Assembly (NCBI GenBank): GCA_964419835.1
Contig: CAYQPT010000003.1
Span: 799 to 64,798, forward strand
Length of the DNA: 64,000 nt
Direction: 5' to 3'
Source: an uncultured Candidatus Saccharibacteria bacterium
Lineage (GTDB): Bacteria > Patescibacteriota > UBA1384 > XYA2-FULL-43-10 > 1-14-0-10-43-13
Under the pieces are notes generated by a model. The model searched no databases and was not told the origin of the DNA. It worked only from the letters and a program-made list of their open reading frames with translations. Position numbers and translations under genes: made by a program. Below are positions 30,428 to 62,980 of the stretch, piece after piece. Within the stretch, counting starts at the first letter, position 1. Every line of letters starts with the position of its first letter.

Positions 30428-30458
30428 AAATTAGAATAATTTACTCCGAAGGAGTCAT

Positions 30459-34934: not shown

Positions 34935-34941
34935 GGAAATC

Positions 34942-43699: not shown

Positions 43700-43790
43700 A
43701 TTTTCAGTTGTCAGTAAATCAGTAAATCGGTTGTCAGTTCTTATACTTACAACTGATTCACTTACAACTTACAACTAGTAATATCGTTCG
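43700..43790 (+). repeat. intercistronic imperfect palindrome of tandem heptamers (GTAAATCAG arm / CTTACAACT arm) after tuf
   Basis: CAGTTGTCAGTAAATCAGTAAATCGGTTGTCAG...ACTTACAACTGATTCACTTACAACTTACAACT. Confidence 0.75.
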
Positions 43791-43855
43791 CAGTGGGGCC
43801 TAATCTAAAATTGGGCTTCACACGAAAAGTATCAACATAATTCAAGAAAAAAGAA

Positions 43856-44179
43856 ATGCCAGAGAAAAGTGCAGTAAAACAGAAGATTAGGATCAAGCTT
43901 AAAGCTTATGATTATCGAATCATCGACAAATCAGCTGAGCAGATCATTCAAACCGCTATCCGATCAGGCGCAGCTGTCGCCGGACCGGTTCCGCTTCCTA
44001 CAGAAACAAGCAAGGTGACTGTTATCAAGTCTCCCCATGTTCACAAGGATTCACGCGAACAGTTTGAAATGAGAGTTCACAAACGATTGATTGATATCTT
44101 AAATCCTACTTCCAAAACAATCGATAACCTTATGGGGCTTGACCTTCCGCACGGCGTTGACATTGAGATCAAAATGTAG
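43856..44179 (+). CDS. rpsJ: 30S ribosomal protein S10
   Basis: [20 protein letters not shown]...GPVPLPT...[13 protein letters not shown]. Confidence 0.95.
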
Positions 44180-45188
44180 TATGCTGGTCTAAGCGATCAG
44201 TTATATTTGCGCTTAATAAAAAGGTCCTGGATATCGTCTCGCCAATCGGCGGATGGATCCAAGACATATTATTTATGTAGCAGGCAAATAAATGACGATT
44301 AGTCATTTATTGTTTGCCACTTAAGTAGGCAAAAACCTTAACATTATTACTGTCCTTAGGCCGTCTGGGATCCTGCATGACCAGGATGGATTGGGCGGCT
44401 CTCGCTCTCCCTTTATGGGGAGATCGCTGAGATTGAGCGTACAACGCTCTCTAAGGATGAGGTCTCGGAGATCTTACCTAAGCCCGGTGGCTGCTGGGGG
44501 ATCACTTCTTGGGTTTGAAATCTGAGACTTCAATTTACCACGCAGTGCGTGTAATATCGCCTGTGTGGGAGGGTTATGTGCTTACTTTTCCTGGATTGGA
44601 GACTCGCAAACGTTGCCTTTCAGATCAGGTAAGTATCATCACCCCCCGGAGAGCAGCCCACTTAGCGACCCTCGAGTTGCGGGTATAGGGGCGACTCTCT
44701 CACTCTTTCTGGCAGTTCTTGGAAAGATGAGAGTTTTGAGTAAGAGGCTCTACCCTCTCCGGGAAACAAGTTCCATCAGTCTTTCGCACAGCGTTTGTAT
44801 TGCGTAGTGCCGCTGTGGGGAAGGAAGCAGAATCAGCACTCAGGTCGGTTGATTCTGTCAAGTAGCAGGGTACTCCCCCTGCTGCTACCAAGGGGTATTA
44901 TACCCCTTCTGTCGGAGTAGGTGGTGCGTTCAGTGCTCCTGCACCACCTACTCAAAATCTTTAACAATTTATTGTTTGAACAAAGTGAGAACTAAAGCAA
45001 TTTACTTATCGCTCCGCTCGAAGAATAAATAGGATCCTTAAACAAGATACAGATCCCGAAACAAGTTTGGGATGACGCAAAGCGTCAGTTCAGGATGACG
45101 ACAAAATTATCATTCGCTATCTGTAAATTCGTAAAATTAGTAATCTCCTGCAGCAGCAGGATCCCGCTTCCAGCGGGGCATAGTCACG
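44180..45188 (+). ncRNA. about 1 kb GC-rich, ORF-free, hairpin-dense segment inserted between rpsJ and rplC: candidate large structured RNA or non-coding inserted element of unknown class
   Basis: No ORF longer than 80 aa on either strand, and none with protein-like composition. GC is about 50% against about 38% in the flanks. Many perfect stems: GGCAAATAAATGAC/GTCATTTATT-TTTGCC at 44280-44318, GAGTAGGTGGTGC/GCACCACCTACTC at 44908-44950, AGCAGGG/CCCTGCT, AAGGGG/CCCCTT and GAGCG/CGCTC. Confidence 0.3.
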
Positions 45189-45935
45189 ATGAAATTCATA
45201 TTAGCAAGAAAAATTGGGATGACACGCGTATTCGACCAAGACGGCCGAAGTTTTGCAGTTACTAAAATTGCCGCTTTGCCTTGCTCTATCTCACAGGTTA
45301 AGGACAAAGAGAAAGACAAATACAAAGCAGTTCAAGTTTCCGCCTATAAAGGCGAGACCTCGCCCGTTAAGGGCGGGAGTGCCATCAAAAGGAAAACCGT
45401 GAAGATTGCTGAATTCAAAGAGCAAAACAGTAAAAGATATAAAATGGGTGAAGATGTTAACCTGAAACAGTTTAAGAAAGACGAAATGGTAACTGTTGAA
45501 GGCACAGGAAAAGGCAAAGGTTTTGCCGGTACAGTTAAACGACATGGTTTTGCCATGGGTCCTGTTTCACACGGCTCAAAGAACATTCGAAAGCCCGGTT
45601 CAATCGGCGGCGGATATCCACAAAGAGTCGTAAAAGGACGAAAAATGGCCGGACGGATGGGTGGACAAAATGTTACTGTTAAAAACCTAAAAATTGTTGA
45701 TGTAGATGACCAGTTTATCTTGATTGCAGGAAGCATTCCCGGACCAAACAAATCAATCGTAAAAGTTTATGGCAAAGGCGAAAAAGCCGAAGAAGTAATT
45801 GACCACGCAGCCGAGGAAGAAAAATTGGCACAGGAAAAGATGCTTGAAGCTGACAAAGAAGCCAAAGAGGAGAAGAAAGAAGATCAAGTTGTGAGTGAAG
45901 CTTCACCGGTCGAAGAGTCAACAGAAGATAAATAA
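45189..45935 (+). CDS. rplC: 50S ribosomal protein L3 with a K/E-rich C-terminal extension
   Basis: MKFILARKIGMTRVFD...TVEGTGKGKGFAGTVKRHGF. Confidence 0.95.
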   Translation: MKFILARKIGMTRVFDQDGRSFAVTKIAALPCSISQVKDKEKDKYKAVQVSAYKGETSPVKGGSAIKRKTVKIAEFKEQNSKRYKMGEDVNLKQFKKDEMVTVEGTGKGKGFAGTVKRHGFAMGPVSHGSKNIRKPGSIGGGYPQRVVKGRKMAGRMGGQNVTVKNLKIVDVDDQFILIAGSIPGPNKSIVKVYGKGEKAEEVIDHAAEEEKLAQEKMLEADKEAKEEKKEDQVVSEASPVEESTEDK

Positions 45936-46012
45936 TCGTAGCAGGTATCAGGTAGCAGGTATTATGCAACCTCCTGATACATACTACCTAATACATTATA
46001 CGAAACAAGAAA

Positions 46013-46687
46013 ATGAAAGTATCAGTTTTTACAAAATCGGGTGAGAAAAAAGAAGATTTGACACTGTCAAACATATTCGGCGTAGAAGTTAGCGGAAAAG
46101 CGGCTACTCTTTATATTAATTATTTGCGTGCAGCGCTCAGGTTTCCTGTTGCAAACACAAAAAACCGAGGCGAGGTATCTGGCGGTGGACGCAAACCTTA
46201 CAGACAAAAAGGTACTGGTAATGCTCGAGCCGGTTCAAGCCGTTCCCCTCTATGGGTTGGCGGTGGTGTAACATTTGGCCCGACAAACGACCAGAACTTT
46301 CACAAAAGAATCAATTCAAGAGAGAAAAGACGGGTTATCCTAGGTCTTATTTCGGAGTTGATTAAAGACAACAAAATGATTGTCTTGGAAGGAATTTCCG
46401 AGGAAATCAAAAAGACTAAAGAAGCAGCACAAATTTTATCCAGCGTTAAAGCCGAAGGTAAAGTTTCAGTAATCCTGTCCAAGGAAAACGGCACAGCATA
46501 TGTATCTTTCAGAAACATTGCCGGTGTTAAAATCATGAGCCCTTCAAAACTGGACATGATTTACCTGACATCTTCCGATAAAGTTGTTGTTTCAAAAGAA
46601 GCACTTGCACAATTGGAAAGTATTTTTACCCCAAAAGACAAGTCACTTTCAGATTCAACGGAAATAGAAAAAGGAGAGCATAAGTAA
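46013..46687 (+). CDS. rplD: 50S ribosomal protein L4
   Basis: [21 protein letters not shown] motif. Confidence 0.95.
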
Positions 46688-46761
46688 ATCAGTAAATCAG
46701 TTGTCAGTAAATCAGATACAAAACTTACAACTTATTCACTTACAACTTACAACTTAAAATC
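46688..46761 (+). repeat. intercistronic heptamer-repeat palindrome (GTAAATCAG / CTTACAACT family) after rplD
   Basis: ATCAGTAAATCAGTTGTCAGTAAATCAG...AACTTACAACTTATTCACTTACAACTTACAACTT. Confidence 0.75.
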
Positions 46762-47121
46762 ATGAGTAATATCATCAAAAAAGTATTAGTTTCAGAAAAG
46801 AGTTTTAGAGATGCCACTTTAGGCAAATATACTTTTGTTGTTGACTCTGGCGCCGATAAAGAAGGCATTGCTAGAATGTGCGAAAGATTGTTTAATGTAA
46901 CTGTTCTTTCTGTTAATTCAATGAATGTTATGGGTAAAGTTAAGACCACCAAACGGATCAAAGGAAGAAGAAGCGATTTCAAAAAAGTCATCTTGACTCT
47001 AAAACCTGGAGACAAAATAGATTTATTTGAAACAGAAGACAAAGAGGACAAGAAAAAAGACAAAAAGGCAGAAAAGAAACTAGAAAAGTCAAAAGTTAAA
47101 GATAAAGATAAGGCAAAATAA
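46762..47121 (+). CDS. rplW: 50S ribosomal protein L23 with a lysine-rich C-terminal extension
   Basis: VLVSEKS...KYTFVVDSGADKEGIARMCERLFNVTVLSVNSMN, followed by a KKDKKAEKKLEKSKVKDKDKAK tail. Confidence 0.9.
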   Translation: MSNIIKKVLVSEKSFRDATLGKYTFVVDSGADKEGIARMCERLFNVTVLSVNSMNVMGKVKTTKRIKGRRSDFKKVILTLKPGDKIDLFETEDKEDKKKDKKAEKKLEKSKVKDKDKAK

Positions 47122-47206
47122 TTAAGCTGTAGTATGTATAAGGTATCATGTATTAGGCGGTTTTCGTCCCTACTACTTACTACCTACTACTTACTACCTA
47201 CTAAGA

Positions 47207-48043
47207 ATGGCACTTCGAATCGTAAAACCTACCGGAAATGCTCGAAGACAGATGTCTGTCACTAATTTTTCGTCTCTTGATAAAAATCCAAAGAGAATCA
47301 AAAGCTTAACTTTCGGCGTTAAGAGAATTTCAGGTAGAAACAGTGCCGGTCAGCTTGTTGTTAGAAGAAGAGGCGGCGGAGCCAAAAAGCTTTACAGAAT
47401 GGTTGATTTTTCCAGAGTTTCTCATATGGGCGAAAAAGCAACCGTAATCGGTATAGAATACGATCCAAACAGAACTGCTCATATTGCACTTATTCAGTAC
47501 GAATCAGGTGAAAAATCATATATTTTAGCGCCTAATGGTCTGGAAAAAGGCAAAGATGTAGTTTGCGACGAAAAGACTTTGGTAAAAACCGGAAATTGCA
47601 TGAAGATTAAAAACATTCCGGTTTCAACTCAAATTCACAATGTCGAATTGGTAAATGGCAAAGGTGGTCAAATATGCCGCGGTGCTGGTAGTTTCGCAAC
47701 ACTTCTTGGTGTTGACGGAAAATATGCCCAGCTTCGAATGCCATCGGGTGAGATTAGAAAGGTTCTGGCGGAAAATTTCGCTTCTATTGGTATTGTGTCC
47801 AACTTGGATCACAGTAACATTAAAATCGGAAAAGCTGGCAGAACACGTTACATGGGAATTCGTCCTTCCGTTCGCGGTAAGGCAATGAACCCTTGCGATC
47901 ATCCACATGGTGGTGGTGAAGGCGGTACCTCAATCGGTATGTCGCATCCAAAGACTCCATGGGGTGCTCCAGCGCTTGGTCCAAGAACACGAAACAAGAA
48001 GAAACCTAATGCCAAGTTGGTATTAAACAGAAGGAAGAAATAA
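47207..48043 (+). CDS. rplB: 50S ribosomal protein L2
   Basis: C-terminal [28 protein letters not shown]. Confidence 0.97.
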
Positions 48044-48330
48044 TGTCCAGATCACTCAAAAAAGGCCCATTTATTGATGAAAAGTTGATGAAGAAGGTTT
48101 TGAAAGCGAATTCGACAAATGATCGAAAACCGATTAAGACCTGGGCAAGATTTTCTACTATTACCCCTGAAATGGTTGGTTTAACCTTCGCAGTTCACAA
48201 TGGTAAAGATCACCTTCCCGTATTCGTTGTTGAGGACATGGTTGGTTATAAGCTGGGTGAATTTTCTCCTACGAGAAAGTTTAGAAGCCACGGCGGTAAG
48301 ATGGCCAAAGAACAAGCTAAGGGAAAGTAA
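48043..48330 (+). CDS. rpsS: 30S ribosomal protein S19
   Basis: [15 protein letters not shown]...[14 protein letters not shown]; overlaps rplB by 1 nt. Confidence 0.95.
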
Positions 48331-48429
48331 ATATTAATCAAGTAGTCAGTAAATCAGTTGTCAGTAAATCAGCAGATATAAAACTTACAACTTATTCACT
48401 TACAACTTACAACTTACAACTGAAATATT
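48331..48429 (+). repeat. intercistronic heptamer-repeat palindrome (GTAAATCAG / CTTACAACT family) after rpsS
   Basis: AGTAGTCAGTAAATCAGTTGTCAGTAAATCAGCAG...AAACTTACAACTTATTCACTTACAACTTACAACTTACAACTG. Confidence 0.75.
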
Positions 48430-48840
48430 ATGGAAATCAAAGTAAAAAGTTTATATTTGAAAGCATCACCCTTCAAAGTCAGACCGGCATTGCATGGTCT
48501 TTTAGGGCAAAATGCACAGAAAGCTTATGTTGCGCTTAGGTTTACAAATAAAAAAGGCGCAGGGTTCATGGCGGGACTTTTAAAGTCAGCAATTGCCATT
48601 GGCAAAGAAAACGACCTTGACCTTGATAAACTTTACATTAAATCAGTTAACTGCACCGAAGGCCCAAGATTAAAGAGAAGACAGATTAAGGCAAGAGGCC
48701 GTTCTGACGCTATACAGAAGAGAATGTGTCACTTGAATCTTATTATTTCAGATATTGCCGACCAAAAGATTAAAGAGAAGAAGCCGGAAGTTAAAAAAGT
48801 TAAAGAAAAACCCGCTAAGAAACCAGCAGTAAAAAGCTAA
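48430..48840 (+). CDS. rplV: 50S ribosomal protein L22
   Basis: L22 family sequence with a K/P-rich C-terminal tail. Confidence 0.9.
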   Translation: MEIKVKSLYLKASPFKVRPALHGLLGQNAQKAYVALRFTNKKGAGFMAGLLKSAIAIGKENDLDLDKLYIKSVNCTEGPRLKRRQIKARGRSDAIQKRMCHLNLIISDIADQKIKEKKPEVKKVKEKPAKKPAVKS

Positions 48841-48847
48841 GGAAATT

Positions 48848-49486
48848 ATGGGACAAAAAGTCAATCCAACATCAATGCGACTGAAGATCAACGAGAGCTG
48901 GAAATCTCTCTGGTTTGGCGGACAAAATTACGCCGACAACCTTATATCTGACTTGAAAATCAGAAAAATGTTGGAAACACGGCTTAAAGAAGCATCACTT
49001 TCTGAGATTATCATCCGACGAGATGCAAATAAGGTTACAATTGACATTCATTCCGGTAGACCCGGTGTTATCATCGGACGAGGCGGAGCAGGTACAGATG
49101 AATTGAAGAAAATACTTCAGAAAAGCTTAACCGGACGAGTTCAGATAAACATCATTGAAGTCAAAAAGCCCGATGCAGATGCCAGCATAATCGCACAAAA
49201 TGTTGCCTCCCAGATTGAAAGAAGAATTCCATTCCGAAGAGCAATCAAGCAGGCAATTGAGAAAGCAAAGGAATCCGGAGTTCAAGGTATTAAAATCCTT
49301 GTCTCAGGACGATTAAACGGTGCAGACATTGCAAGGTCAGAAAAAAATTCCTTCGGAACAGTTCCGCTTTCAATGTTTAAGAGCAATATTGAGTTCAAAC
49401 ATATCCAAGCCCATACCACTTTCGGTGTAATTGGAGTCAAAGTCTGGGTGTACAAGGGCGAACGAGGAATGAAAGAAGAAGCTTAA
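48848..49486 (+). CDS. rpsC: 30S ribosomal protein S3
   Basis: MGQKVNPTSMRL, KH domain and the GRPGVIIGRGG motif. Confidence 0.95.
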   Translation: MGQKVNPTSMRLKINESWKSLWFGGQNYADNLISDLKIRKMLETRLKEASLSEIIIRRDANKVTIDIHSGRPGVIIGRGGAGTDELKKILQKSLTGRVQINIIEVKKPDADASIIAQNVASQIERRIPFRRAIKQAIEKAKESGVQGIKILVSGRLNGADIARSEKNSFGTVPLSMFKSNIEFKHIQAHTTFGVIGVKVWVYKGERGMKEEA

Positions 49487-49580
49487 ATACAAATATACGG
49501 ATTTATAAACAAGATATACAGATGTACGGATAATCTGTAAATCTGTAAATCCGAGCAAGATCCGTAAATCGGTATAAAGG
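49487..49580 (+). repeat. about 95 bp TACGGAT/ATCTGTA inverted heptamer-repeat element (after rpsC)
   Basis: ATACGGATTTATAAACAAGATATACAGATGTACGGATAATCTGTAAATCTGTAAATCCGAGCAAGATCCGTAAATCGGTA. Confidence 0.8.
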
Positions 49581-49589
49581 AAATAAATC

Positions 49590-50003
49590 ATGTTGATGCC
49601 AAAGAAAATGAAATTTAGAAAGCAGCAAAGAGGAAGCAACCGCGGACAAGCAACTCGCGGCAATACTCTTGCTTTTGGTAAGTTTGGTATCAAGACATTG
49701 GAAGGCGGCTGGATTTCGGCAAGAGAGATAGAAGCTGCACGACGAGCCATGACAAGATATATTAAGCGTGGTGGTGAAGTTTGGATCCGCGTATTTCCCG
49801 ACAAGCCAGTTACCATGACTTCGGCAGAAGTGCCTATGGGATCAGGAAAAGGTGCCGTAGATCACTTTGTTGCAGTTATCCAACCCGGTAGAATATTATT
49901 TGAAATGGATGGCGTTGAAGGAATAGTTGCTAAAGAGGCAATGCGTTTAGCACAACACAAACTTTCTGTTAAGACCAAATTCGTCAGCAAGGAGGAAATG
50001 TGA
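49590..50003 (+). CDS. rplP: 50S ribosomal protein L16
   Basis: [15 protein letters not shown]... Confidence 0.95.
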
Positions 50004-50215
50004 AAGTAAAAGAACAAATGAAGAAATATAGAGAAATGAAAGATTCCGATCTTGCAGCTGAGCTTAAAAATATTAAGAAAGAATTAACTCTAGCTTCTCT
50101 TAAAGTTAAAGTCGGAAAGCAGTCAGATATTTCACAGGTAAAGAAAATTAAGAAGAATATCGCCAGAATTAATTCAATCGTTACTGAAAAAGCATACGGA
50201 GTATCAAATGAATAA
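50000..50215 (+). CDS. rpmC: 50S ribosomal protein L29
   Basis: Short coiled-coil protein with L29-like [15 protein letters not shown], directly after rplP (4 nt overlap). Confidence 0.85.
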
Positions 50216-50453
50216 TAAAGTCATAAGAACCAAAAAAGGCACAGTTGTTTCTGACAAGATGGATAAAACCGTTGTTGTTTCAGTTGACCGGATTAAAGAG
50301 CACCCACTTTACAAGAAGAAGTATACTGTAAGCAAGAAATATAAGGCAGACGATCAGGAAAATCAGTACAAAGTCGGCGATGTTGTTGAGATAACAGGAA
50401 CAAGACCGATCAGTAGAGATAAGAAGTATAAGGTATTAAGGAAGGTTAATTAG
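50208..50453 (+). CDS. rpsQ: 30S ribosomal protein S17
   Basis: [39 protein letters not shown]...[20 protein letters not shown]. Confidence 0.93.
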
Positions 50454-50551
50454 TAAGTTAGCCGGGTAGTCGGGTAGTTGGGTAACAGATGATGTTGAGA
50501 ACACTAACTAACAAACAAACCAACTAACCAACGATCAAACTAGGAATTATT
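50454..50551 (+). repeat. intercistronic repeat palindrome (GGTAGTYGG arm / AACTAAC arm) after rpsQ
   Basis: TTAGTAAGTTAGCCGGGTAGTCGGGTAGTTGGGTAAC...ACTAACTAACAAACAAACCAACTAACCAAC. Confidence 0.7.
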
Positions 50552-50917: not shown

Positions 50918-50999
50918 TCAGTAAATCAGTAAATAAGTAAATCAGTAAATAAGTTCAAAACAGACAACTGATTCACTGACAACTGACAACTAAAACAAC
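50918..50999 (+). repeat. intercistronic heptamer-repeat palindrome (GTAAATMAG / CTGACAACT family) after rplN
   Basis: CAGTAAATCAGTAAATAAGTAAATCAGTAAATAAG...CAACTGATTCACTGACAACTGACAACT. Confidence 0.75.
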
Positions 51000-52055: not shown

Positions 52056-52156
52056 TAGAGGATAAGTAAATCAGTAAATAAGTTGTAAGTAAATAAGTTC
52101 TTGTAAATAAACAGTAACCGAGAACTGACAACTGACAACTGACAACTAAGGAAATT
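52056..52156 (+). repeat. intercistronic heptamer-repeat palindrome (GTAAATAAG / CTGACAACT family) after rpsZ
   Basis: AAGTAAATCAGTAAATAAGTTGTAAGTAAATAAG...GAACTGACAACTGACAACTGACAACT. Confidence 0.75.
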
Positions 52157-52537
52157 ATGACAGATCACATCGCAGATTTATTGGTAAGAATCAAAAATGC
52201 TTCACTTGTTAAAAAGTACGAAGTCACTCTTCCATTTTCAAAAATGAAAGAGGCAATTTTGAAAATCCTTGAACGCGAAGAATTCATTAAGAATATTGAA
52301 GTTTCAGGAGAGGCCAATAAAAAAGTGATTAGCTTCCGAATTTCACATACAAAAACCCCAACCCACATCAAACAGATTTCAAAGCCGGGACAGAGAATCT
52401 ATGTCAAAAGCAAAGATATCCCAAATCCGCTTAGAGGTCTAGGACTTGTAATAATCTCAACCCCAAAGGGTGTTATTACTGCAAAAGAGGCCTCAAAAAC
52501 AGGATTGGGCGGGGAATTAATCTGTGAAATCTGGTAG
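52157..52537 (+). CDS. rpsH: 30S ribosomal protein S8
   Basis: MTDHIADLLVRIKNA... Confidence 0.95.
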   Translation: MTDHIADLLVRIKNASLVKKYEVTLPFSKMKEAILKILEREEFIKNIEVSGEANKKVISFRISHTKTPTHIKQISKPGQRIYVKSKDIPNPLRGLGLVIISTPKGVITAKEASKTGLGGELICEIW

Positions 52538-52631
52538 AGAGCAAGTAGTCGGTAAATCAGTAGTCAGTAAATCAGTAATAAATTAATAACTTACAACTTA
52601 TTCACTTACAACTGACAACTAAGGAAAAAAA
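52538..52631 (+). repeat. intercistronic heptamer-repeat palindrome (GTAAATCAG / CTTACAACT family) after rpsH
   Basis: AGTAGTCGGTAAATCAGTAGTCAGTAAATCAG...AACTTACAACTTATTCACTTACAACTGACAACT. Confidence 0.75.
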
Positions 52632-53168: not shown

Positions 53169-53262
53169 AAATACAGATATACGGATAATGACAAGATATA
53201 CGGATGTACGGATGATCTGTAAATCTGTAAATCCGCGAAAGATCTGTAAATCCGTATTAAGG
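53169..53262 (+). repeat. about 95 bp TACGGAT/ATCTGTA inverted heptamer-repeat element (after rplF)
   Basis: ATACAGATATACGGATAATGACAAGATATACGGATGTACGGATGATCTGTAAATCTGTAAATCCGCGAAAGATCTGTAAATCCGTA. Confidence 0.8.
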
Positions 53263-53270
53263 AATACATT

Positions 53271-53585: not shown

Positions 53586-53673
53586 TAAATCAGTAAATCA
53601 GTAAATCAGTAAATCAGCACTATTAAAATAGTAACTGAGAACTGAGAACTGACAACTTACAACTAAGGATAAT
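53586..53673 (+). repeat. intercistronic heptamer-repeat palindrome (AGTAAATC x 4 / CTGAGAACT family) after rplR
   Basis: AGTAAATCAGTAAATCAGTAAATCAGTAAATCAG...AACTGAGAACTGAGAACTGACAACTTACAACT. Confidence 0.75.
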
Positions 53674-54321
53674 ATGACAGCAGCAGAAAAAAACATAATG
53701 AGACAACGCGGTTCTTACGAAAAAAGAGAACCAAAAGAATATGACGAAAAGGTGATTGAAGTCGCCAGAGTTTCGCGTGTGGTTAAAGGTGGTCGAAGAA
53801 TCCGGTTTCGAGCTTTAGTTGTGATTGGTAATCACAACGGAAAAGTCGGGATGGGTATTGCAAAAGCAACCGAGGTTTCAGAAGCAGTCAGGAAAGCCAC
53901 TACTTACGCTAAAAAGCACATTATTATAGTCCCAATCATTAGCGGCACTATTCCTTATGAAATCACCATGAAACATGGTGGAGCACGAGTGCTTTTAAAA
54001 CCCGCAACCGAAGGTACTTCAGTTGTTGCCGGTGGAAGCATAAGGTCTGTAGCTGAACTAGCTGGTATTTCAGATCTTCTGTCAAAATCACTTGGAAGCT
54101 CAAACAAGATTAACTGTGTAACCGCCACCATTAAAGCGCTTTCATCCTTCAATCCCGACATTGTTGAAAAGGTAAGAAAAGCTTCAGAACGATCAAAGCC
54201 AAAGGGCGAGCCGGTTGTGGTCAAAGAGGCGCCTGTCCCCGAAGAAAAAGTGGAAGAGAAAGTTGCTCCGGAGAAACCAAAAAAGTCAGTAAAAGCTAAA
54301 AAGGCAGCTGCCAAGAAATAG
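53674..54321 (+). CDS. rpsE: 30S ribosomal protein S5 with K/E-rich N- and C-terminal extensions; rplO follows directly, with no L30 gene between
   Basis: VIEVARVSRVVKGGRRIRFRALVVIGNHNGKVGMGIAKATEV... The C-terminal tail is rich in K, E, P and A. Confidence 0.95.
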   Translation: MTAAEKNIMRQRGSYEKREPKEYDEKVIEVARVSRVVKGGRRIRFRALVVIGNHNGKVGMGIAKATEVSEAVRKATTYAKKHIIIVPIISGTIPYEITMKHGGARVLLKPATEGTSVVAGGSIRSVAELAGISDLLSKSLGSSNKINCVTATIKALSSFNPDIVEKVRKASERSKPKGEPVVVKEAPVPEEKVEEKVAPEKPKKSVKAKKAAAKK

Positions 54322-54421
54322 ATTAGTTAATCAGTTAAACTGTTAATCGGTTAACTGGTGACAATACTCAAGAATTATCAATAAACCATTTAACTATCTA
54401 ACAATTTAACCATTCAACATT

Positions 54422-54952
54422 ATGAAGCTAATATCAGTACAAACTAAAAATAAGAAAAGACCTGGCCGAGGCATTTCAGCCGGTCAAGGTAAAACTGCAG
54501 GTCGCGGAACAAAAGGACAAAAGTCGCGAAGTGGTTTTAATATTCCAAATCGACATGAAGGTGGACAGACCCCGCTTTCAATGAGACTGCCTAAGTTGCC
54601 AGGTTTTAAATCCCTAAAGAAAAAAGCGGCAATCATTTCACTCGATCAAATCTCAAAAGAATTCAAAGATAAAGAAATTGTTTCTCTGGATGCTTTGGAG
54701 AAAAAAGGCCTGATCAAGACGGGCGAGAAAGCCAAAATCCTTAACAATGGTAAGCTCACAGTTAAAGTTACTCTTGGTGAAGGCGTCAAAGTGTCAGAGA
54801 AGATTGCAAATCTATTCGCTTCGGATCTTCCGGTTGTTAAGGCAGAAACTCTGCCTGAGAAAGCAAAAGGATTAGCACCTGAAGTCAAAAAAGACGAAAC
54901 TCCGGTTAAAGTCAAAAAAGCCCCTGCCAAAAAGCCAACAGCCAAAGCCTAA
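54422..54952 (+). CDS. rplO: 50S ribosomal protein L15
   Basis: RPGRGISAGQGKTAGRGTKGQKSRSG motif. Confidence 0.93.
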   Translation: MKLISVQTKNKKRPGRGISAGQGKTAGRGTKGQKSRSGFNIPNRHEGGQTPLSMRLPKLPGFKSLKKKAAIISLDQISKEFKDKEIVSLDALEKKGLIKTGEKAKILNNGKLTVKVTLGEGVKVSEKIANLFASDLPVVKAETLPEKAKGLAPEVKKDETPVKVKKAPAKKPTAKA

Positions 54953-55169
54953 TGCTCCCCTTAGGGGAAAAACCACAAAATAGATATTCCAGTTATACAT
55001 AAATAAAAATGCTCCAGCGAATGGAGTATTTTTATTTGGCAAATATGACTATATAGCTCAGAAAAAGGACTTTTTAGATAATGCTCAGCTTGATTTAATT
55101 AAAGCAAACCTCTAAGTTGTTAAACCGTACGCTCATGATGGAGCGGTTTTTAATAAGGAAAGGTTTGTT

Positions 55170-55565
55170 ATGAGTGAAGCTATTAAAGAAAAACTAGGGA
55201 TGTTCCGCAATACTTTCTTTCGGGAAAAGTACCGTTTTGATCAGGGAAACGCTTTTTTGGTTTTTTTAAACTTTACAATGCTCGTAACTTCTCTGGTTAA
55301 ACAAAGTCATGGCAATCAAAGCTTGGTTGCTTGGTATGTGGTTTTGGGGTTTACGGGAACATGGATTTTGGGCTATTTCTTAGACAAAATTGTCCGCGTA
55401 CAGGACGCATCTGAAAGAGTGGCTTTTAAGAGAAGCCCGATTTGGAAAAGAAATTTTGATCATCATAGCCAAATAAATCGTAAGATTGAGAACATTAATA
55501 AGAAAATCGATAATATTCATAAATTGGTTGAGGACATCAAAAAGCTTGAAAAAGAAAATCAATAA
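55170..55565 (+). CDS. hypothetical small membrane protein (2 TM plus a C-terminal coiled coil) inserted between rplO and secY
   Basis: Two hydrophobic helices, then RKIENINKKIDNIHKLVEDIKKLEKENQ. Confidence 0.5.
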   Translation: MSEAIKEKLGMFRNTFFREKYRFDQGNAFLVFLNFTMLVTSLVKQSHGNQSLVAWYVVLGFTGTWILGYFLDKIVRVQDASERVAFKRSPIWKRNFDHHSQINRKIENINKKIDNIHKLVEDIKKLEKENQ

Positions 55566-55581
55566 TACCATTCTATAGTTC

Positions 55582-55935
55582 ATGGATACTTATTGTGATA
55601 TTATGGACTATATGGAAAATGAGCTTTTAAAAATATGTGTAGGAGTGCCTGAAAGCCATGCAGATGCCGTTCGCGAAGCACTTGGAAGTGCAGGTGCAGG
55701 TAAAATTGGCAATTATGACTTCTGTAGCTTTTCCTGCAAAGGCGTTGGCAGATTCCGTCCTCTCTCGGGCGCTAAGCCGGCGATAGGTGAAATCGGCCAA
55801 ATTGAGACCGTTTCTGAGGAGCAGATACAAACTGTTTGCTATAGGTCTGATCTCGATAAAATCATCAAAGCAATAAAACAGGTTCATCCTTACGAAGAGC
55901 CAGTTATTGATGTGTATCCTTTGGCTCAAATTTAA
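55582..55935 (+). CDS. small protein resembling the C-terminal domain of Nif3 / GTP cyclohydrolase 1 type 2 family (COG3323-like)
   Basis: ESHADAVREALGSAGAGKIGNYDFCSFSCKGVGRFRPLSGAKPAIGEIGQIE...HPYEEPVIDVYPL closely follows the Nif3 C-terminal consensus. Confidence 0.55.
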   Translation: MDTYCDIMDYMENELLKICVGVPESHADAVREALGSAGAGKIGNYDFCSFSCKGVGRFRPLSGAKPAIGEIGQIETVSEEQIQTVCYRSDLDKIIKAIKQVHPYEEPVIDVYPLAQI

Positions 55936-56030
55936 TATATGATAAATACTCAACAATACAAACTGTTTTTGTATTTTGCGACACAATAAATGAATTGATT
56001 TTAACCTCCAAATAAGTTAAGATAAGCGTG

Positions 56031-57302
56031 ATGGATAAACTCGAAAAAATATGGCGGTTTCCCGACCTACGCAACAAAATTTTAGTTGCGGTCGGTTTGC
56101 TATTGGTTACCCGTTTATTGTCACATATTCCTCTTCCCGGAGTTGATCTTGCAAGATTGCAGCAGTTTTTTCAGCAGAATCAGGCCTTTGGACTCCTAAA
56201 TATGTTTTCCGGTGGTACGATGAGCAATTTTTCGATCATTTTAATGGGTGTTGGACCATATATTACATCTTCAATTATTTTTCAGTTATTGGGTATGATT
56301 TTCCCTGCTGTAGAGCGCTTACAGAAAGAAGGAGAGGAAGGGAAGCAGAAGATCAATCAATGGACAAGGATGGCAACCATACCATTTGCGATAATCCAAG
56401 CATTTTCAATGCTAGTGATTCTTCGTAATCAAGGCATTATTCCCGGGTGGACACCATTTGATCTTTCGGTCATGTTGATTTCAGTCTGTGCCGGCACAAT
56501 ATTGCTCATGTGGATTGGTGAAATTATTTCTGAAAAGGGGATAGGGAATGGCGTTTCATTAATCATCGGGTTGGGTATTCTCTCTGGATTTCCGGAGCAG
56601 ATTAGAAATACCGCCGCATTGGTCAGCACTGGCGATACAAGCAAGATAATCGGCGTTTTTGCATTTTTAGCAATCTTATTAATTACAATTGCCGGTATTA
56701 TCTTTGTTCAGGAGGGACAACGCAACATTCCTATTTCGTATGCAAAAAACATGCGTTTTGGTGCACATAGCGGGGTTGCAAGTCACCTGCCTATCCGAGT
56801 AAATATAGCCGGCGTAATTCCAATCATTTTTGCCATGAGCTTGCTCGTTATGCCTGGGGTCGTGTCCAAGTACTTGGAAAACGCCCATACGCCATGGATT
56901 GCGCACAGCGCCAAATTTACATCTGATCTGTTTGCCAACCAAGTATTTTATGGGATAGCATACTTTTTACTAGTGGTCATTTTTACATACTTTTACACCT
57001 CCGTTGTATTTAAGCCGGATCAGATTGCAGAGAATCTACAGAAACAGAGCGGGTATGTTCCCGGTATTCGCCCCGGAACGGAAACAAAAGAATATTTAAG
57101 CGGAATTATTACCAGAATCACCCTTTTCGGCGCCACATTCTTGGGCGTTATTGCCGTTCTGCCGTTCATTGTTCAATCAGTCACTCACATCACAACTATT
57201 GTTCTTGGCGGAACGGGAATATTGATTATTGTTTCGGTTGTGGTTGAAACCATGCGTCAGGTTGAATCGCAGATTACAATGCACACATATGACACATATT
57301 AA
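56031..57302 (+). CDS. secY: preprotein translocase subunit SecY
   Basis: Ten TM helices and SecY signature blocks. GTG at 56028 is an alternative start. Confidence 0.95.
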   Translation: MDKLEKIWRFPDLRNKILVAVGLLLVTRLLSHIPLPGVDLARLQQFFQQNQAFGLLNMFSGGTMSNFSIILMGVGPYITSSIIFQLLGMIFPAVERLQKEGEEGKQKINQWTRMATIPFAIIQAFSMLVILRNQGIIPGWTPFDLSVMLISVCAGTILLMWIGEIISEKGIGNGVSLIIGLGILSGFPEQIRNTAALVSTGDTSKIIGVFAFLAILLITIAGIIFVQEGQRNIPISYAKNMRFGAHSGVASHLPIRVNIAGVIPIIFAMSLLVMPGVVSKYLENAHTPWIAHSAKFTSDLFANQVFYGIAYFLLVVIFTYFYTSVVFKPDQIAENLQKQSGYVPGIRPGTETKEYLSGIITRITLFGATFLGVIAVLPFIVQSVTHITTIVLGGTGILIIVSVVVETMRQVESQITMHTYDTY

Positions 57303-57402
57303 TTTTTAAAAATTAATATGTGTAAAATTCAAATCTCAAATTTCAAATCTCAAAATAGGGAATTTTACTATTAAAGCATTTAACAGCTCAGTTAGGAGAA
57401 AA

Positions 57403-58041
57403 ATGAAGAAAATCTACTCATTTATTGGTTTGCCCGCATCAGGCAAAGGAACACAGGCTAAAATTTTCGCCGACAAGCATAATTTGGATCTTATTGGCAT
57501 GGGAGACTTAATTCGTGCTGCCATTACCGAGAGCGAAGGCAAAGATGATCCATTTGTAAATGAAATTAAGAAAAGATATGATGCAGGCGTTCCACAGCCC
57601 GACGAAGTGGCTTTTGACCTGCTTTCAAAAAAGCTCTCAACCTTAACTAAAGACGGCGCCGTTTTTGATAATTTTCCCTTCACAGTCAAACAGGCGGAGC
57701 TTTTGATTGATTTCACTAAGGAAAATGATTGGGAATTGCCGACTTTAATTCACATCAAACTAGATCCCGAAACCACAATTGAACGAATCGCCCACAGGAA
57801 AATCTGTCCGCAGTGCAACCGTATCTACAGCAAAAAAGACATCACAATTTGCGAGGAGTGTGGTATTGCTTTGGTCTCGAGAGCAGACGACAACGAGGAA
57901 ACAGCACGGACAAGAATTGAGCACTATGTTCCAAAAATTAATGAACTAGTTGATTATTATAAGGGTGTAGGCCGTCTGATTGATATTGACGGTGAACCTT
58001 CAGTCGAGCAAGTTACCGAGGAAATTGAAAAGGCACTATGA
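57403..58041 (+). CDS. adk: adenylate kinase (zinc-lid type)
   Basis: GLPASGKGTQ P-loop and CPQC...CEEC lid. Confidence 0.95.
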   Translation: MKKIYSFIGLPASGKGTQAKIFADKHNLDLIGMGDLIRAAITESEGKDDPFVNEIKKRYDAGVPQPDEVAFDLLSKKLSTLTKDGAVFDNFPFTVKQAELLIDFTKENDWELPTLIHIKLDPETTIERIAHRKICPQCNRIYSKKDITICEECGIALVSRADDNEETARTRIEHYVPKINELVDYYKGVGRLIDIDGEPSVEQVTEEIEKAL

Positions 58042-58796
58042 GCAATATTCTTTCCAAGAAAGAAATAAAAGACATAAAAGTTTGCGGCAAGATTTTAAAG
58101 GACTCTTTAAATGAAGTCAAAAATGCCGTCAAACCCGGAGTTTCTACGTTGGAATTAGATAAAATAGCCGAAGACGCCATCGTAAGGCAGGGCGCCGTCC
58201 CGTCATTTAAGGATTATGAGGTTAAGGGATCCGGAAATTTCCCTTTTACCACATGTGTTTCGATAAATGATGAGGTAGTACACGGTCTTCCATCTAAAAG
58301 GATTATTAACAATGGAGATGTCGTGTCGCTTGATCTTGGTGCCATATACAATGGTGTATGTACCGACATGGCGATTACGCTTCCTGTAGGTGATGTAAGT
58401 GAATCCGCTCTAAAGTTGATCTCAGTCACCCGCGAATGCCTGAATCTGGGTATAAACGAGGCCAAAGCAGGCAAATATATTGGTGATATTGGAAATGCTG
58501 TTCAAACTCATGCTGAGAGGAACAAATTTGGTGTTGTAAGGGACTTGGTTGGGCATGGAATAGGAACTGAGCCCCATATGCAACCAAGTATTCCTAATTT
58601 TGGGAAAAAAGGCGCTGGAGCCAAGATTATCGAAGGAATGGCACTTGCAATTGAGCCAATGCTGACGGAAGGAAATTATGAAGTTAAAGTGGGTATGGAC
58701 GGATGGACGGTGCTCACTCGCGACGGCTCCATAGCAGCTCATTTTGAGCACACAATCGTTATTGTAGAGGGAAAACCTATTGTCGTTACTGCGTAA
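58038..58796 (+). CDS. map: methionine aminopeptidase type I
   Basis: Pita-bread fold motifs with metal-binding residues; overlaps adk by 4 nt. Confidence 0.93.
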   Translation: MSNILSKKEIKDIKVCGKILKDSLNEVKNAVKPGVSTLELDKIAEDAIVRQGAVPSFKDYEVKGSGNFPFTTCVSINDEVVHGLPSKRIINNGDVVSLDLGAIYNGVCTDMAITLPVGDVSESALKLISVTRECLNLGINEAKAGKYIGDIGNAVQTHAERNKFGVVRDLVGHGIGTEPHMQPSIPNFGKKGAGAKIIEGMALAIEPMLTEGNYEVKVGMDGWTVLTRDGSIAAHFEHTIVIVEGKPIVVTA

Positions 58797-58972
58797 TGAC
58801 GCAATTTAAAATTTATAATTTTTAATTCAAAATTGTTGTGGACACTGCGTGTTGGCACTAGAGTAATCCAGCCACTGAGTGGCTTCAAAAGCATCTATCT
58901 ACTAACTACTATCTACTAACCACTAAATGTGTTGACTTATACCATAAATTGTGTTAAATTTTATAATGAAAT

Positions 58973-59218
58973 ATGTCAAAAAATGATGCAATCGAAATGA
59001 CCGGTAAGGTGGTCGAAGTTTTACCTGATTCAAAGCTGAGAATAGAACTAGAAACAGGACATTCTGTTTTAGGTTATTTATCGGGTAAAATGATCAAAAA
59101 CCGCATTCAGGTTATGGCAGGAGACAATGTAATTGTCGAGTTAACACCTTATGATTTGTCTAGAGGACGAATTGTGAGGCGGTTAAATCCCGAGAGAAAA
59201 TTCGGTTCTGGCTCATAA
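58973..59218 (+). CDS. infA: translation initiation factor IF-1
   Basis: S1-like OB fold: [30 protein letters not shown]... Confidence 0.93.
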
Positions 59219-59257
59219 ATAGCATCGCCATGGGGGAGTTTTTAATTTTGGAATATA

Positions 59258-59404
59258 ATGAAGGTTCAGTCATCCGTTAAAAAAATCTGCGATAAATGTA
59301 AGATTATCATTAGAAGCAAAAAGGGCAAATCAAAGCGTGTAAGTTCAAAGAAACGCTTGTTTGTCATCTGCTCTAATCCAAAGCATAAACAGAGACAAGG
59401 ATAA
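59258..59404 (+). CDS. rpmJ: 50S ribosomal protein L36 with an 11 aa insertion in the zinc-ribbon loop (48 aa; not in the ORF track)
   Basis: [48 protein letters not shown]: C-x2-C...C-x4-H L36 pattern. Lies between infA and rpsM in the conserved position. Confidence 0.8.
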
Positions 59405-59406
59405 AT

Positions 59407-59793
59407 ATGGCCCGAATAGCTGGTGTTAACATTCCAAACGAAAAAAGAATTGAGATAGGTCTAACCTATGTATTTGGTATTGGTCCGTCTACGAGTAAGA
59501 AAATTCTTAGCCAGACCAGCATTAATCCCGATATTCGCGTTAAGGATTTGACAGAATCAGACTTGGAAAAAATCCGGAATATTATAGGAAAAAACATTCG
59601 AGTTGAAGGCGACCTTAAGATGGAGGTTACTCAGAATATTAAGCGCTTAAAAGAGATTAATTCATATAGGGGAACTCGGCATTTGAGAGGGCTGCCAGCA
59701 AGAGGACAAAGAACAAAGACAAATGCCAGAACCAAAAGAGGCAAAAAAGTAACAGTCGGATCAGGAAGAAAAGCTGCAGCACAAAAAACATAA
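59407..59793 (+). CDS. rpsM: 30S ribosomal protein S13
   Basis: [30 protein letters not shown]... Confidence 0.96.
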
Positions 59794-59888
59794 TTAGAAA
59801 AATAGTCGGTTAGTAGGGTAGTTAGTTAGTAAATTAATTATCAAATCTCTAACCATCTAATCCACTAACAAACTAATGAACCATTATC

Positions 59889-60296
59889 ATGGCCAAAGAA
59901 ACACCTAAAAAGTCAACTAAAAAAATAGTCAAAAAGAGATCGAAAACCCCCGTTCTTTCAGGAAGCATTTTCGTTCAATCATCTTTCAACAACACGATTA
60001 TTTCAATTACCGATGAAACCGGAAACGTTATTGCCTGGGCAACAGCGGGTTCCAGTGGCTTTAAAGGTGCTAGAAAATCCACTCCTTACGCTGCTCAGAT
60101 AGCAGCAGCAGCTGCAATTGAAAAGGCAAAAGCAAGAGGATTTTCCAAAGCCAAGGTTTATGTAACCGGTGTCGGATCAGGACGAGAATCCGCCGTTAGA
60201 GCCATCACAAACACTGACATTGAAGTTACATTAATCAAAGATACAACACCGGTAGCGCACAATGGCTGCCGTCCTAAAAAAGCCCGAAGAGTATAA
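59889..60296 (+). CDS. rpsK: 30S ribosomal protein S11
   Basis: S11 family sequence (...TPYAAQIAAAAAIEKAKARGF...VGSGRESAVRAI...). Confidence 0.95.
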   Translation: MAKETPKKSTKKIVKKRSKTPVLSGSIFVQSSFNNTIISITDETGNVIAWATAGSSGFKGARKSTPYAAQIAAAAAIEKAKARGFSKAKVYVTGVGSGRESAVRAITNTDIEVTLIKDTTPVAHNGCRPKKARRV

Positions 60297-60384
60297 ACAG
60301 TAAATAAGGATTAAGTAAATATGTAAATAAGTAATATGCAACCAAACTTACTACTTATTCACTTACAACTTACAACTTAAAATT
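60297..60384 (+). repeat. intercistronic repeat palindrome (GTAAATAAG arm / CTTACAACT arm) after rpsK
   Basis: CAGTAAATAAGGATTAAGTAAATATGTAAATAAGTAAT...AACTTACTACTTATTCACTTACAACTTACAACTT. Confidence 0.7.
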
Positions 60385-62871: not shown

Positions 62872-62980
62872 GCGTGTAAGCGAATAAGTCACCGCCTTTG
62901 GCGGGATCCCCTCAGAATGCGGGACAAGTAATCAATATTGAAACCCAATCAACTAACTACTATCAACTAACTACTAATTT

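Follow-up and report, generated by a model that had tools for sequence, protein, structure and literature searches.

The S10-spc-alpha operon of a Candidatus Saccharibacteria genome carries, in nearly all of the gaps between its ribosomal protein genes, long noncoding spacers that are imperfect palindromes with arms of tandem 7- to 8-mers. We found that these elements have been copied from junction to junction within the genome, that closely related species differ by wholesale replacements whose limits are precisely the stop codon and the Shine-Dalgarno (SD)/start region, and that the elements that are retained change much more slowly than synonymous sites. The operon lies in a stretch of 64,000 nt (assembly GCA_964419835.1, contig CAYQPT010000003.1, positions 799-64,798), hereafter the window, which is the only part of the genome that was examined. 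Its open reading frame (ORF) map reads gyrB-gyrA, rpoB-rpoC, rpsL-rpsG, fusA, tuf, rpsJ, rplC to rplO, secY-adk-map, infA, rpmJ, rpsM-rpsK-rpsD-rpoA-rplQ and rplM-rpsI, with nearly all genes on the + strand. All relatives keep the universal S10-spc-alpha gene order. The G+C content is about 40%, and GC skew and AT skew are both positive, the latter strongly so.

At 14 junctions from rplC to rpsD, the spacers measured 74 to 103 nt, while the gap distal to tuf reached 156 nt and the one between rplM and rpsI 109 nt (Table 1). Each spacer is a single imperfect palindrome, starting about 5 nt past the stop codon and ending about 10 nt short of the following start, with rplM-rpsI holding a 3' array only and no full palindrome. 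A first-pass annotation of the same DNA had reported spacers of 75-110 nt at nearly every junction, which our measurements (74-109 nt) bear out, and it had overlooked those at rpsC-rplP and rplF-rplR. Elements are absent from the overlapping or abutting junctions rplB/rpsS, rplV/rpsC (7 nt), rplP/rpmC/rpsQ, rplX/rplE/rpsZ, adk/map, rpsD/rpoA and rplQ/rplM.

The nearest genome records are Patescibacteria (Candidate Phyla Radiation, CPR) metagenome-assembled genomes (MAGs), namely L001 (JBAZNP010000004) and L002 (CAYIJI010000037), with L5 identities to the window of 88 and 83%, followed by L003 (a Berkelbacteria MAG) and L004 (another CPR contig) at 62-64%. Searching for exact matches to L14 and S19 led to a sister species, here called species B (L162-L165, L167, L169-L173), an exact S14 look-up returned the window strain only, and a metagenome scan gave no relatives nearer than those from the genome scan. 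Independent assemblies from other samples (L161, L166, L168) were 100% identical to the window over 9 kb, so the spacers are not an assembly artifact. We then surveyed the junctions from rplC to rplO in all retrieved loci that had 8 or more scorable junctions (117 loci). Typical loci had zero to two junctions of 60 nt or more, compared with 12 of 18 in the window (about 1.1 kb of repeat DNA), 11 of 18 in L001, 10 of 16 in L002 and 8 of 15 in species B. The spacers of the next CPR relatives (L003, L004, L037, L046) were mostly 0-40 nt long and L082 (L5 identity 62%) was intermediate. The expansion is thus confined to one small clade of Patescibacteria.

Palindromy was scored at the DNA level by a gapped, strand-neutral alignment of each spacer with its own reverse complement. 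The median z-score (z) was 5.0 for 45 spacers of the clade versus 0.33 for 122 long S10/spc spacers from other bacteria, and scanning segments above the 99th percentile of shuffles made up 19% of the intergenic-rich sequence versus 0.9% of the coding sequence, a difference of about 20-fold, which places the inverted symmetry beyond chance. A gapless inverted-repeat search of the window did not pick up the spacers, because the periods of the two arms differ (8 versus 7) and gaps are required. According to Tandem Repeats Finder, the 5' arms are mostly tandem 8-mers (AGTAAATC, ATACGGAT, AGTTAATC, TAGTCGGG) and the 3' arms mostly tandem 7-mers (AACTTAC, AACTGAC, CCTACTA); the earlier description of the spacers as tandem heptamers thus suits the 3' arms but not most 5' arms.

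Clustering of all spacers from five genomes yielded ten families, and a direct-repeat search of the window gave families D1 to D12, which comprise full-length families as well as several arm families (D1, 75 nt, five copies; D2, 93 nt, at three loci; D3, 46675-46715 and 52057-52097, 90% identical; D8, 123 nt, two copies, 93% identical). Family F1 (AGTAAATC with ACTTACA or ACTGACA) has eight copies in the window, all within one 17-kb stretch (43.7-60.4 kb), three in L001 and one in species B. Family F4 was found at fusA-tuf, rpsC-rplP and rplF-rplR of the window, with a half copy after rpsG, and in L001 at rplV-rpsC, a junction of just 7 nt in the window. Family F5 occupies rpsE-rplO in the window versus rpsQ-rplN and rplN-rplX in species B. 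Arms are conserved and loops variable among copies, and nonperiodic segments (ACAAGATATAC, ACTTATTCACT) are common to different junctions and genomes. Moreover, six window copies of F1 carry the motif ATTCACT, which creates an A·C mismatch, where the L001 orthologue at rpsH-rplF has ATTTACT, which pairs perfectly; a single founder thus gave rise to the window copies. Identity reached 0.91 among the F1 copies of the window and 0.88-0.90 among the F3 copies of L001, higher than for the same family across genomes (0.61-0.81). All 36 matches to F1 arm motifs lay on the + strand in the expected polarity, the 5'-arm motifs never occurred on the - strand, and every copy of every family had one orientation relative to transcription. 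A candidate inverted copy of the inner element of L002 was rejected, as the forward score was better against five of six copies; both scores were similar, the element being nearly palindromic. The label "REP-like" (REP, repetitive extragenic palindromic) given in the first-pass annotation is thus well founded, with multi-copy dispersed families, similarity that runs into nonrepetitive parts, diagnostic mismatches in common, and elements that are copied and replaced. As a separate observation, the 3' arms of the rpsZ-rpsH and rplR-rpsE elements (52109-52163 and 53626-53680) are 89% identical over 55 nt, and this similarity continues across the SD and includes the initial codons (ATGACAG) of both rpsH and rpsE, which may be chance or gene conversion reaching gene starts.

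Comparison with species B revealed how quickly the elements turn over. The genes of the two species are 87-98% identical at the DNA level and their 4-fold sites 13-15% diverged, so neutral spacers are expected to be about 85% identical. Only the rplW-rplB (81%) and rplR-rpsE (74%) spacers were recognizably homologous, and at 9-10 of 12 junctions the spacers could not be aligned (about 45-63%, the level of unrelated sequences), with replacement breakpoints at the stop codon and in the SD/start region. The unalignable species B spacers keep the same length and the same palindromic tandem-array architecture. The first-pass annotation had considered that equally long but unrelated spacers lacking inverted symmetry in close relatives would speak against it; equal length and unrelated sequence were indeed found, but with the inverted symmetry present. 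Family changes at a given site were seen as well: in relatives, the rpsS-rplV spacer belongs to family F3 or F9 (TTACAAATC) instead of F1, rpsQ-rplN holds an F5 element in species B, and the gap after tuf contains a different, terminator-like hairpin in species B and L001. Empty sites include rplV-rpsC in the window (7 nt versus 105 nt when filled), rpsH-rplF in species B (30 versus 94 nt), and rplD-rplW and rpsQ-rplN in both L001 and L082 (0 nt versus 74-98 nt). At the other extreme, L002 has composites of 172-234 nt at eight junctions, an inner hairpin being nested in an outer one, and these eight include the normally overlapping rplB/rpsS and rplX/rplE.

Elements that persist behave differently. 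The 4-fold sites of L001 differ from those of the window by 50%, yet F4 was 79% and the rpsH-rplF element 81% identical in the two, and family consensus sequences were about 79-81% identical. The elements are therefore conserved beyond neutrality for as long as they persist, after which they are exchanged whole. Local remodeling, of the kind that replication slippage would cause, also alters array length and period. Some arrays are fully homogenized (AGTAAATC repeated 4.2 times with 100% match), and the 8-mer array of the window at rplR-rpsE corresponds to an AGTAATC 7-mer array in species B. At rplW-rplB, the 5' arm is common to both species, and the CCTACTACTTACTA array of the window 3' arm is replaced in species B by three CTACCAA units that pair less well (folding free energy, dG, -15.6 versus -20.5); arms therefore evolve as arrays, not by pair-preserving substitution. 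Among species B strains from several samples, with genes 99.7-100% identical, the spacers were identical except for two substitutions in one strain, and no length instability resembling phase variation was observed. On a side note, element ends have become coding in places. The L22 C-termini of L001 (ending in QIANKANKAK, 7517-7558) and L002 (ending in NNANKANKKKHSLN, about 5880-5923) are encoded across a 5' arm of the GCGAATAAAGC type, the 3' end of rplD in the window, stop codon included (46675-46687), matches the start of an F1 element, and the C-terminal tails of several ribosomal proteins differ in length between close relatives.

The position of the predicted hairpins relative to the flanking genes was constant. 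In four genomes, the median distance from the stop codon to the outermost predicted helix was 3-5 nt and that from the helix to the following start 10-14 nt, leaving a through-space gap of 16-19 nt regardless of spacer length, including in L002 with its median spacer of 186 nt. The SD, where present, is just outside the stem. Spacer ends are A-rich whether an SD is present or not, and the AAGGA that had been described as directly preceding the next start codon is present at about half of the junctions and missing from the rest. The 3' arms (AACTGAC or AACTTAC repeated 3.6-5.6 times, on the + strand only) end 3-21 nt before the start. The last 45 nt contain on average 0.3 start-codon triplets in the real orientation versus 0.9 when flipped, and about 1.8 would be expected from composition according to a rough estimate. 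Promoter-like and terminator-like sites were not enriched and no terminator-like site was found in the spacers. RNA folds of both strands were scored against dinucleotide shuffles at 16 junctions. The sense RNA reached z ≤ -4 at 5 junctions and was not significant (z > -2) at 6, and the antisense RNA reached z ≤ -3.3 at 11. The F4 and F10 elements form quasi-continuous helices of 31-41 pairs, and the F4 hairpin at rpsC-rplP (31 pairs) is stronger on the sense strand. RNAalifold gave no consensus structure for 11 F1 copies on the sense or antisense strand, nor for a mix of two related families; for F4 it returned a 31-pair consensus without compensatory double changes among four sequences only.

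The same layout also occurs outside the clade. A Thermoanaerobaculia MAG (L019, DATBSF010000128, 60% G+C) has it at rpsJ-rplC, rplX-rplE, rplF-rplR and rpmJ-rpsM, in the order stop codon, three to four AGTGCCG units, loop, three to four CGGCACT units and SD. An unrelated metagenome contig (L128, Ga0265342_10000027, 50% G+C) has GGTAAGY/RCTTACM arrays at at least 8 junctions, often followed by ATTTTT, and these hairpins could be internal attenuators. In a 58-kb viral contig (L188/L190, IMGVR_UViG_3300031812_000004), a hairpin of 225 nt is placed precisely in the interval from a stop codon to the following ATG, with about 11 AAAGTNR units, a loop and about 18 AACTTNM units, and more AACTTNM arrays are found 3 kb away. 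Other arm-motif matches in viral contigs were mostly isolated arrays without a hairpin partner and were taken as chance. As L019, L128 and L188 share the layout, the architecture recurs independently; what is special to the clade of the window is the saturation and the number of families.

On balance, we lean towards the view that the spacers are constrained palindromic tandem-array elements that spread by copying, are remodeled by slippage, are replaced wholesale and fill available gaps, where they would be tolerated as little harmful. Several families of noncoding palindromes of 75-110 nt (up to 234 nt when nested in L002) would have entered the intercistronic gaps after the clade split from its next relatives, so as to lie now in every gap in which stop and start do not overlap. 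Copying could be the work of a dedicated transposase encoded outside the window; template switching or gene conversion among neighboring junctions could equally be involved. In all likelihood the spacers are co-transcribed with the operon mRNA, in which they would form mismatch-interrupted and mostly modest hairpins spanning the whole insertion. A folded element would leave an effective distance of about 16 nt from stop to start with the SD free, and this geometry, together with stop-rich 5' arms and 3' arms poor in G and in start codons, may be why such insertions are tolerated in an essential, translationally coupled operon.

Several points weigh against this view. No transposase or other mobilizing gene was present among the unassigned ORFs of the 64-kb window, which had PEBP, M50 protease-CBS, Obg, LysM-CHAP or LiaF-like assignments or no match. 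Comparing filled with empty sites showed no evident target-site duplication, and no copy in inverted orientation was found. F1 is confined to 17 kb, for which gene conversion or template switching on a local scale would account just as well as transposition. Near-complete occupancy, a narrow range of lengths (74-109 nt) and uniform orientation may reflect selection for function, and the presence of the layout in the unrelated lineages L019, L128 and L188 argues for selection on the transcript playing a part.

Unlikely, though to be taken seriously, is the main alternative, that the spacers are intercistronic RNA devices selected by the host, with selection acting on architecture and not on sequence, so that a hairpin would preserve translational coupling or direct processing. 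For coupling, the base of the hairpin would lie in the footprint of the terminating ribosome, and translation of the upstream gene would melt it and free the G-poor leader and the SD; alternatively, the stems would be RNase III-type processing sites or stabilizing sites that cut the polycistronic mRNA into units. Mapped RNase III sites between cistrons, of the T7 early mRNA and rplJL-rpoBC type, are irregular hairpins of about two helical turns. Such devices would agree with an architecture, length and position that are kept while the sequence is replaced, with an outer helix held at the same distances from stop and start even in L002, with the uniform orientation, the depletion of start codons in the 3' arms and the conservation of element sequences well past the neutral expectation, as well as with the long helices of F4 and F10 and the same layout in the ribosomal protein operons of L019 and L128 and in the phage contig. 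The folding results fit less well, given that the sense fold was no better than shuffles at 6 of 16 junctions, that F1 lacks a consensus structure on either strand, that F4 lacks compensatory double changes, and that species B swapped a 3' arm for a worse-pairing array. Furthermore, the SD lies outside the stems, and the elements are dispensable at individual junctions (rpsH-rplF in species B, rplD-rplW and rpsQ-rplN in L001) with the genes kept. We also regard as rather doubtful a broader form of this idea, in which a selected device with a fixed layout (stop codon, stop-rich G/A/T array, loop, complementary G-poor array, SD/start) would let a long insert sit between coupled cistrons through melting by the ribosome, or would mark segmental processing. 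Four or more lineages (among them the CPR clade, the Thermoanaerobaculia MAG, L128 and the phage) would have acquired it independently, and recognition of each family by a sequence-specific partner would explain the conservation beyond the neutral rate.

Improbable, in our judgment, is an origin without any copying, in which slippage in situ makes the 7- to 8-mer array and strand-switch (quasi-palindrome) replication makes its complement, repair having been lost in a reduced genome. The perfectly homogenized arrays, the different periods of the two arms, the orthologous 8-mer and 7-mer arrays of the window and species B and the swap of one arm for another array are what slippage could produce, and arrays without a complementary partner arm do exist (626-659, 57324-57356, 58895-58926 and 62948-62977; a further one lies at 35573-35609). 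Heptamer arrays are also the commonest long simple repeats in prokaryotes, at least in the summary of Mrazek et al. (2007) given in PMC4679880. Slippage is not the sole cause, because the same complex element, including its nonperiodic segments, is present at different junctions and in different genomes, and the dispersed families largely refute it as the only mechanism. A derived mismatch is common to six copies, copies within a genome are more alike than those at the same junction elsewhere, and strains from different samples show no variation in length. The term "slippage-generated" used earlier consequently describes the homogenized arrays, the 8-mer/7-mer orthologues and the swapped arm, but not the recurrence of one complex element at different junctions.

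An asymmetry of mismatches had led the first-pass annotation to hint at an antisense RNA, since A·C mismatches in the sense strand become G·U wobbles in the antisense strand. The numbers hold for the window, with 55 A·C versus 23 G·U on the sense strand, and similar ratios were obtained for species B (32:13) and L001 (29:14). No asymmetry was seen in L002 (47:45) or in F4 (ATACGGAT family), which folds better on the sense strand. A·A mismatches, however, also far exceed U·U mismatches in the window (24:8) and F1 has no consensus fold on either strand, which undercuts the hint itself. Given this excess of A·A and the strong AT skew, unpaired positions of the sense strand are enriched in A and C, and the antisense strand automatically acquires G·U and U·U; the better antisense folding would thus be a by-product of this enrichment in the mRNA sense. 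Deamination of C to T on an exposed sense strand, linked to transcription or replication, was rejected by inference because it would give sense G·U and not A·C; with the opposite pattern expected from deamination, the asymmetry is more likely selective, weakening the mRNA hairpin or avoiding G before starts. That the palindromes act not as mRNA but as antisense RNA, or as DNA (cruciforms or protein-binding sites relieving supercoiling in heavily transcribed operons, for which the gyrase and integration host factor sites in bacterial interspersed mosaic elements (BIMEs) of Escherichia coli are an analogue), is very improbable: at most junctions the antisense RNA has the more stable fold, and the more significant one, A·C outnumber G·U about 2:1 in three genomes, and the elements are concentrated in those operons of the window that have the highest expression (rpoBC, rpsL-rpsG-fusA-tuf (str), S10-spc-alpha and gyrBA), but promoter-like sites on the minus strand are not enriched, the excess of A·A over U·U points to general A-richness of the sense strand, L002 and F4 show no asymmetry, F1 has no antisense consensus fold, and helices of 3-7 bp broken by mismatches make poor cruciforms.

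Outside the ribosomal operon, hairpins of the same style occur at three of the additional sites listed in the first pass (after the glycosyltransferase-like gene, at gyrB-gyrA and after rpoC), while 626-659 and 57324-57356 are arrays without a full complementary arm. The style is therefore found beyond the operon within the 64 kb, but the suggestion that it is genome-wide does not extend to the main family, F1, which stays wholly within 43.7-60.4 kb. Other features of the window were also recorded. The rpsL-rpsG genes and fusA lie about 4.8 kb apart (35419-40232). This interval encodes a PEBP-family protein and, on the minus strand, an M50 protease-CBS protein, and about 2.5 kb of it are rich in GC (about 50%) and dense in hairpins, with short ORFs only. 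A palindromic core at 39398 (ATCCGCCAGCTGGCGGAT) is also present in the rpoB-rpoC and rpsL-rpsG elements and in one species B spacer. The rpsJ-rplC gap (44180-45188) consists of 1009 nt of noncoding, GC-richer sequence without an Rfam hit. Its segment 44200-45188 folds at -391.8 kcal/mol versus -296 ± 6 for shuffles (z = -15), with some 15 strong hairpins in a row, and the gap measures 743 nt in L001, 622 in L002, 757 in species B, 1447 in L012 and 841 in L037. Conservation is limited to the first ~100 nt (for example CTGGATATCG...GGATCCAAGAC), which could be a ribosomal protein leader. The gap as a whole may consist of accumulated hairpin elements or may be one large structured RNA. A small hairpin motif, GATCC[CT]GAAACAAGTT[TC][GA]GGATGAC, occurs at different loci of the window (about 45040-45075) and of L001 (at the end of the rpsJ-rplC gap and just upstream of secY), and a related 19-mer (GGGGATGACATAAAGAGTG) is repeated 3.1 times in tandem upstream of rpoB (26536-26593). 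Between rplO and secY (54953-56027), a strong terminator-like hairpin 3' of rplO is followed by two small ORFs, one without a Pfam match (55170-55565) and one with a weak CutA1-like match (55582-55935); this interval is 840 nt in L001 and only 86 nt in L082. The apparent infA-rpsM spacer contains rpmJ (59260-59403), coding for an L36 of about 48 amino acids, longer than the usual 37-38 or so, with the same internal insertion in L004. A tRNA scan of the window found none.

Table 1. Palindromic spacers and related elements of the window; the ribosomal operon is given first.
Feature	Positions	Strand	Family	Remarks
tuf-distal element	43700..43790	+	F1, D1	hairpin in the first ~90 nt of the gap; 5' units AGTTGTCAGTAAATC, 3' units ACTTACAACT; sense dG -23.4, z -6.0
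rplC-rplD spacer, 77 nt	45936..46012	+		single-copy palindrome with GTAGCAG heptamers; z -4.4
rplD-rplW spacer, 74 nt	46688..46761	+	F1, D1	D1 reference copy
rplW-rplB spacer, 85 nt	47122..47206	+	F7	
rpsS-rplV spacer, 99 nt	48331..48429	+	F1	91% identical to rplD-rplW copy
rpsC-rplP spacer, 103 nt	49487..49589	+	F4, D2	ATACGGAT / ATCTGTAAATC; dG -27.6, z -6.0
rpsQ-rplN spacer, 98 nt	50454..50551	+		TAGTCGGG 8-mers paired with AACTAACC array; weak sense fold, z -0.7
rplN-rplX spacer, 82 nt	50918..50999	+	F1	AATCAGTA x4.9 / AACTGAC x4.6
rpsZ-rpsH spacer, 101 nt	52056..52156	+	F1	orthologous to L001 copy, 71-73% identity
rpsH-rplF spacer, 94 nt	52538..52631	+	F1	orthologous to L001 copy, 80-81%
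rplF-rplR spacer, 102 nt	53169..53270	+	F4, D2	dG -28.4, z -4.9
rplR-rpsE spacer, 88 nt	53586..53673	+	F1	perfect AGTAAATC x4.2
rpsE-rplO spacer, 100 nt	54322..54421	+	F5	AGTTAATC / AACAATTT
rpsM-rpsK spacer, 95 nt	59794..59888	+		palindrome of TTAGT / CTAAC units; z sense -2.9, antisense -5.2
rpsK-rpsD spacer, 88 nt	60297..60384	+	F1, D1	79% identity
rplM-rpsI spacer, 109 nt	62872..62980	+	D11	small GC-rich hairpins and G-poor ATCAACTAACTACT array up to the start codon; z -1.2
Glycosyltransferase-like gene, spacer after	3631..3733	+		same-style hairpin
gyrB-gyrA spacer	8084..8191	+		palindrome of opposite polarity (C/T-rich arm first)
rpoB-rpoC spacer	30303..30458	+	F10, D8	123-nt GC-richer hairpin element; dG -49
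rpoC, hairpin after	34185..34330	+		long, AT-rich, AAATCCG-type units; dG -33
rpsL-rpsG spacer	34813..34941	+	F10, D8	second F10 copy (repeat 34812-34934, 93% identical to rpoB-rpoC copy); dG -42
rpsG, half element after	35419..35470	+	F4, D10	5' half, then terminator-like hairpin
PEBP-family gene, array before	35535..35612	+	F5-type, D7	lone 3' arm array (AACAATTTAACCATTT) up to the start codon
fusA-tuf element	42306..42405	+	F4, D2	directly 3' of fusA

S10-spc-alpha is the most conserved and compact bacterial operon and CPR genomes rank with the most streamlined, and here it nevertheless hosts what appears to be an active repeat population, whose members turn over faster than synonymous sites between species and yet are constrained in sequence within families. 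The operon can be viewed as a natural experiment on which content is permitted in an intercistronic spacer, namely a hairpin spanning the insert, stop-rich 5' arms, and 3' arms poor in G and in start codons. The recurrence in unrelated phyla and in a phage offers a testable case for a general rule, be it mutational or selective. From a practical standpoint, the spacers break assemblies and alignments of a marker locus in wide use for MAG phylogeny, and they could possibly serve as fine-scale lineage markers.

Several known types of intergenic sequence were set aside. Intrinsic terminators (a GC-rich stem with a U-tract) do not match spacers that hold no terminator-like site. Integron attC sites were rejected, with a fixed gene order, no core-site pair (RYYYAAC...GTTRRRY) at the spacer ends by eye and no integrase in the window. 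The same applies to CRISPR, TIGR arrays and DNA uptake sequences, there being no repeat-spacer arrays and several unrelated motifs in place of one. Known Rfam RNAs, including ribosomal protein leaders, had zero matches at gathering thresholds over the whole window, and a permissive search (E ≤ 1) of 36-45.25 kb gave a single sub-threshold miRNA match, taken as chance. Our literature search found no description of such spacers in CPR genomes.

The REP/BIME elements and the REPIN elements with their REP-associated tyrosine transposases (RAYTs), known from Enterobacteria and Pseudomonas (PMC3116915, PMC2817692), share several properties with the elements described here. Both are short imperfect palindromes that are extragenic only, often between co-transcribed genes, and form multi-copy families that evolve within a genome while the family consensus is conserved beyond the neutral rate. 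In the window, inverted repeats are not enriched in coding segments and the elements run from stop codon to SD. Unlike REP and REPIN, the arms are low-complexity tandem 7- to 8-mers, several unrelated families occur together, few and locally clustered copies per family are visible in the 64 kb, no RAYT gene was seen there, and the elements have a single orientation without inverted doublets. REP elements typically number tens to hundreds of copies over a whole genome. Miniature inverted-repeat transposable elements (MITEs) are another point of reference. The Correia/NEMIS (Neisseria), ERIC (Yersinia) and RUP/BOX (Streptococcus) elements are co-transcribed MITE-like repeats with known or proposed effects on mRNA processing and stability. 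They resemble our elements as hairpin-forming inserts of about 100-150 nt inside operons whose presence differs between relatives, and insertion polymorphism between relatives was indeed observed here. Unlike MITEs, the elements have no terminal inverted repeats distinct from the body, the whole being a palindrome of tandem units, no clear target-site duplication was found, no parent insertion sequence is present in the window, the ribosomal protein operon is saturated, and at a given site one family gives way to another.

In the literature, what comes nearest to the 3' arms are the TAACTGA heptamer arrays of Beggiatoaceae, cyanobacteria and Bacteroidetes, which closely precede start codons in a specific orientation, also inside ribosomal protein operons (MacGregor, 2015, PMC4679880). 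The unit of our 3' arms reads NAACTGA or NAACTTA, and both are orientation-specific tandem heptamers a few nucleotides before the start, often without an SD, with stop codons in all frames. Cyanobacterial short tandemly repeated repetitive (STRR) sequences are intergenic heptamer repeats as well. In contrast to the TAACTGA and STRR arrays, each array of the window is paired with a complementary 8-mer array into a hairpin, and several units are used; the Beggiatoa arrays are direct repeats without a complementary array, with 1 of 170 sets inverted (PMC4679880). Repetitive hairpin elements of sponge mitochondria, as excerpted from PMC2800124, are hairpin-forming repeats that invade organelle intergenic DNA. 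To the extent covered by that excerpt, they parallel the repeated invasion of the few gaps of a compact genome by several hairpin families and differ in hosts and sequences, having no tandem heptamers and no tie to the stop-to-start geometry. The spacers of the window are REP/MITE/STRR-like and appear to be a saturating form of the selfish palindromic repeats of other bacteria and of organelles.

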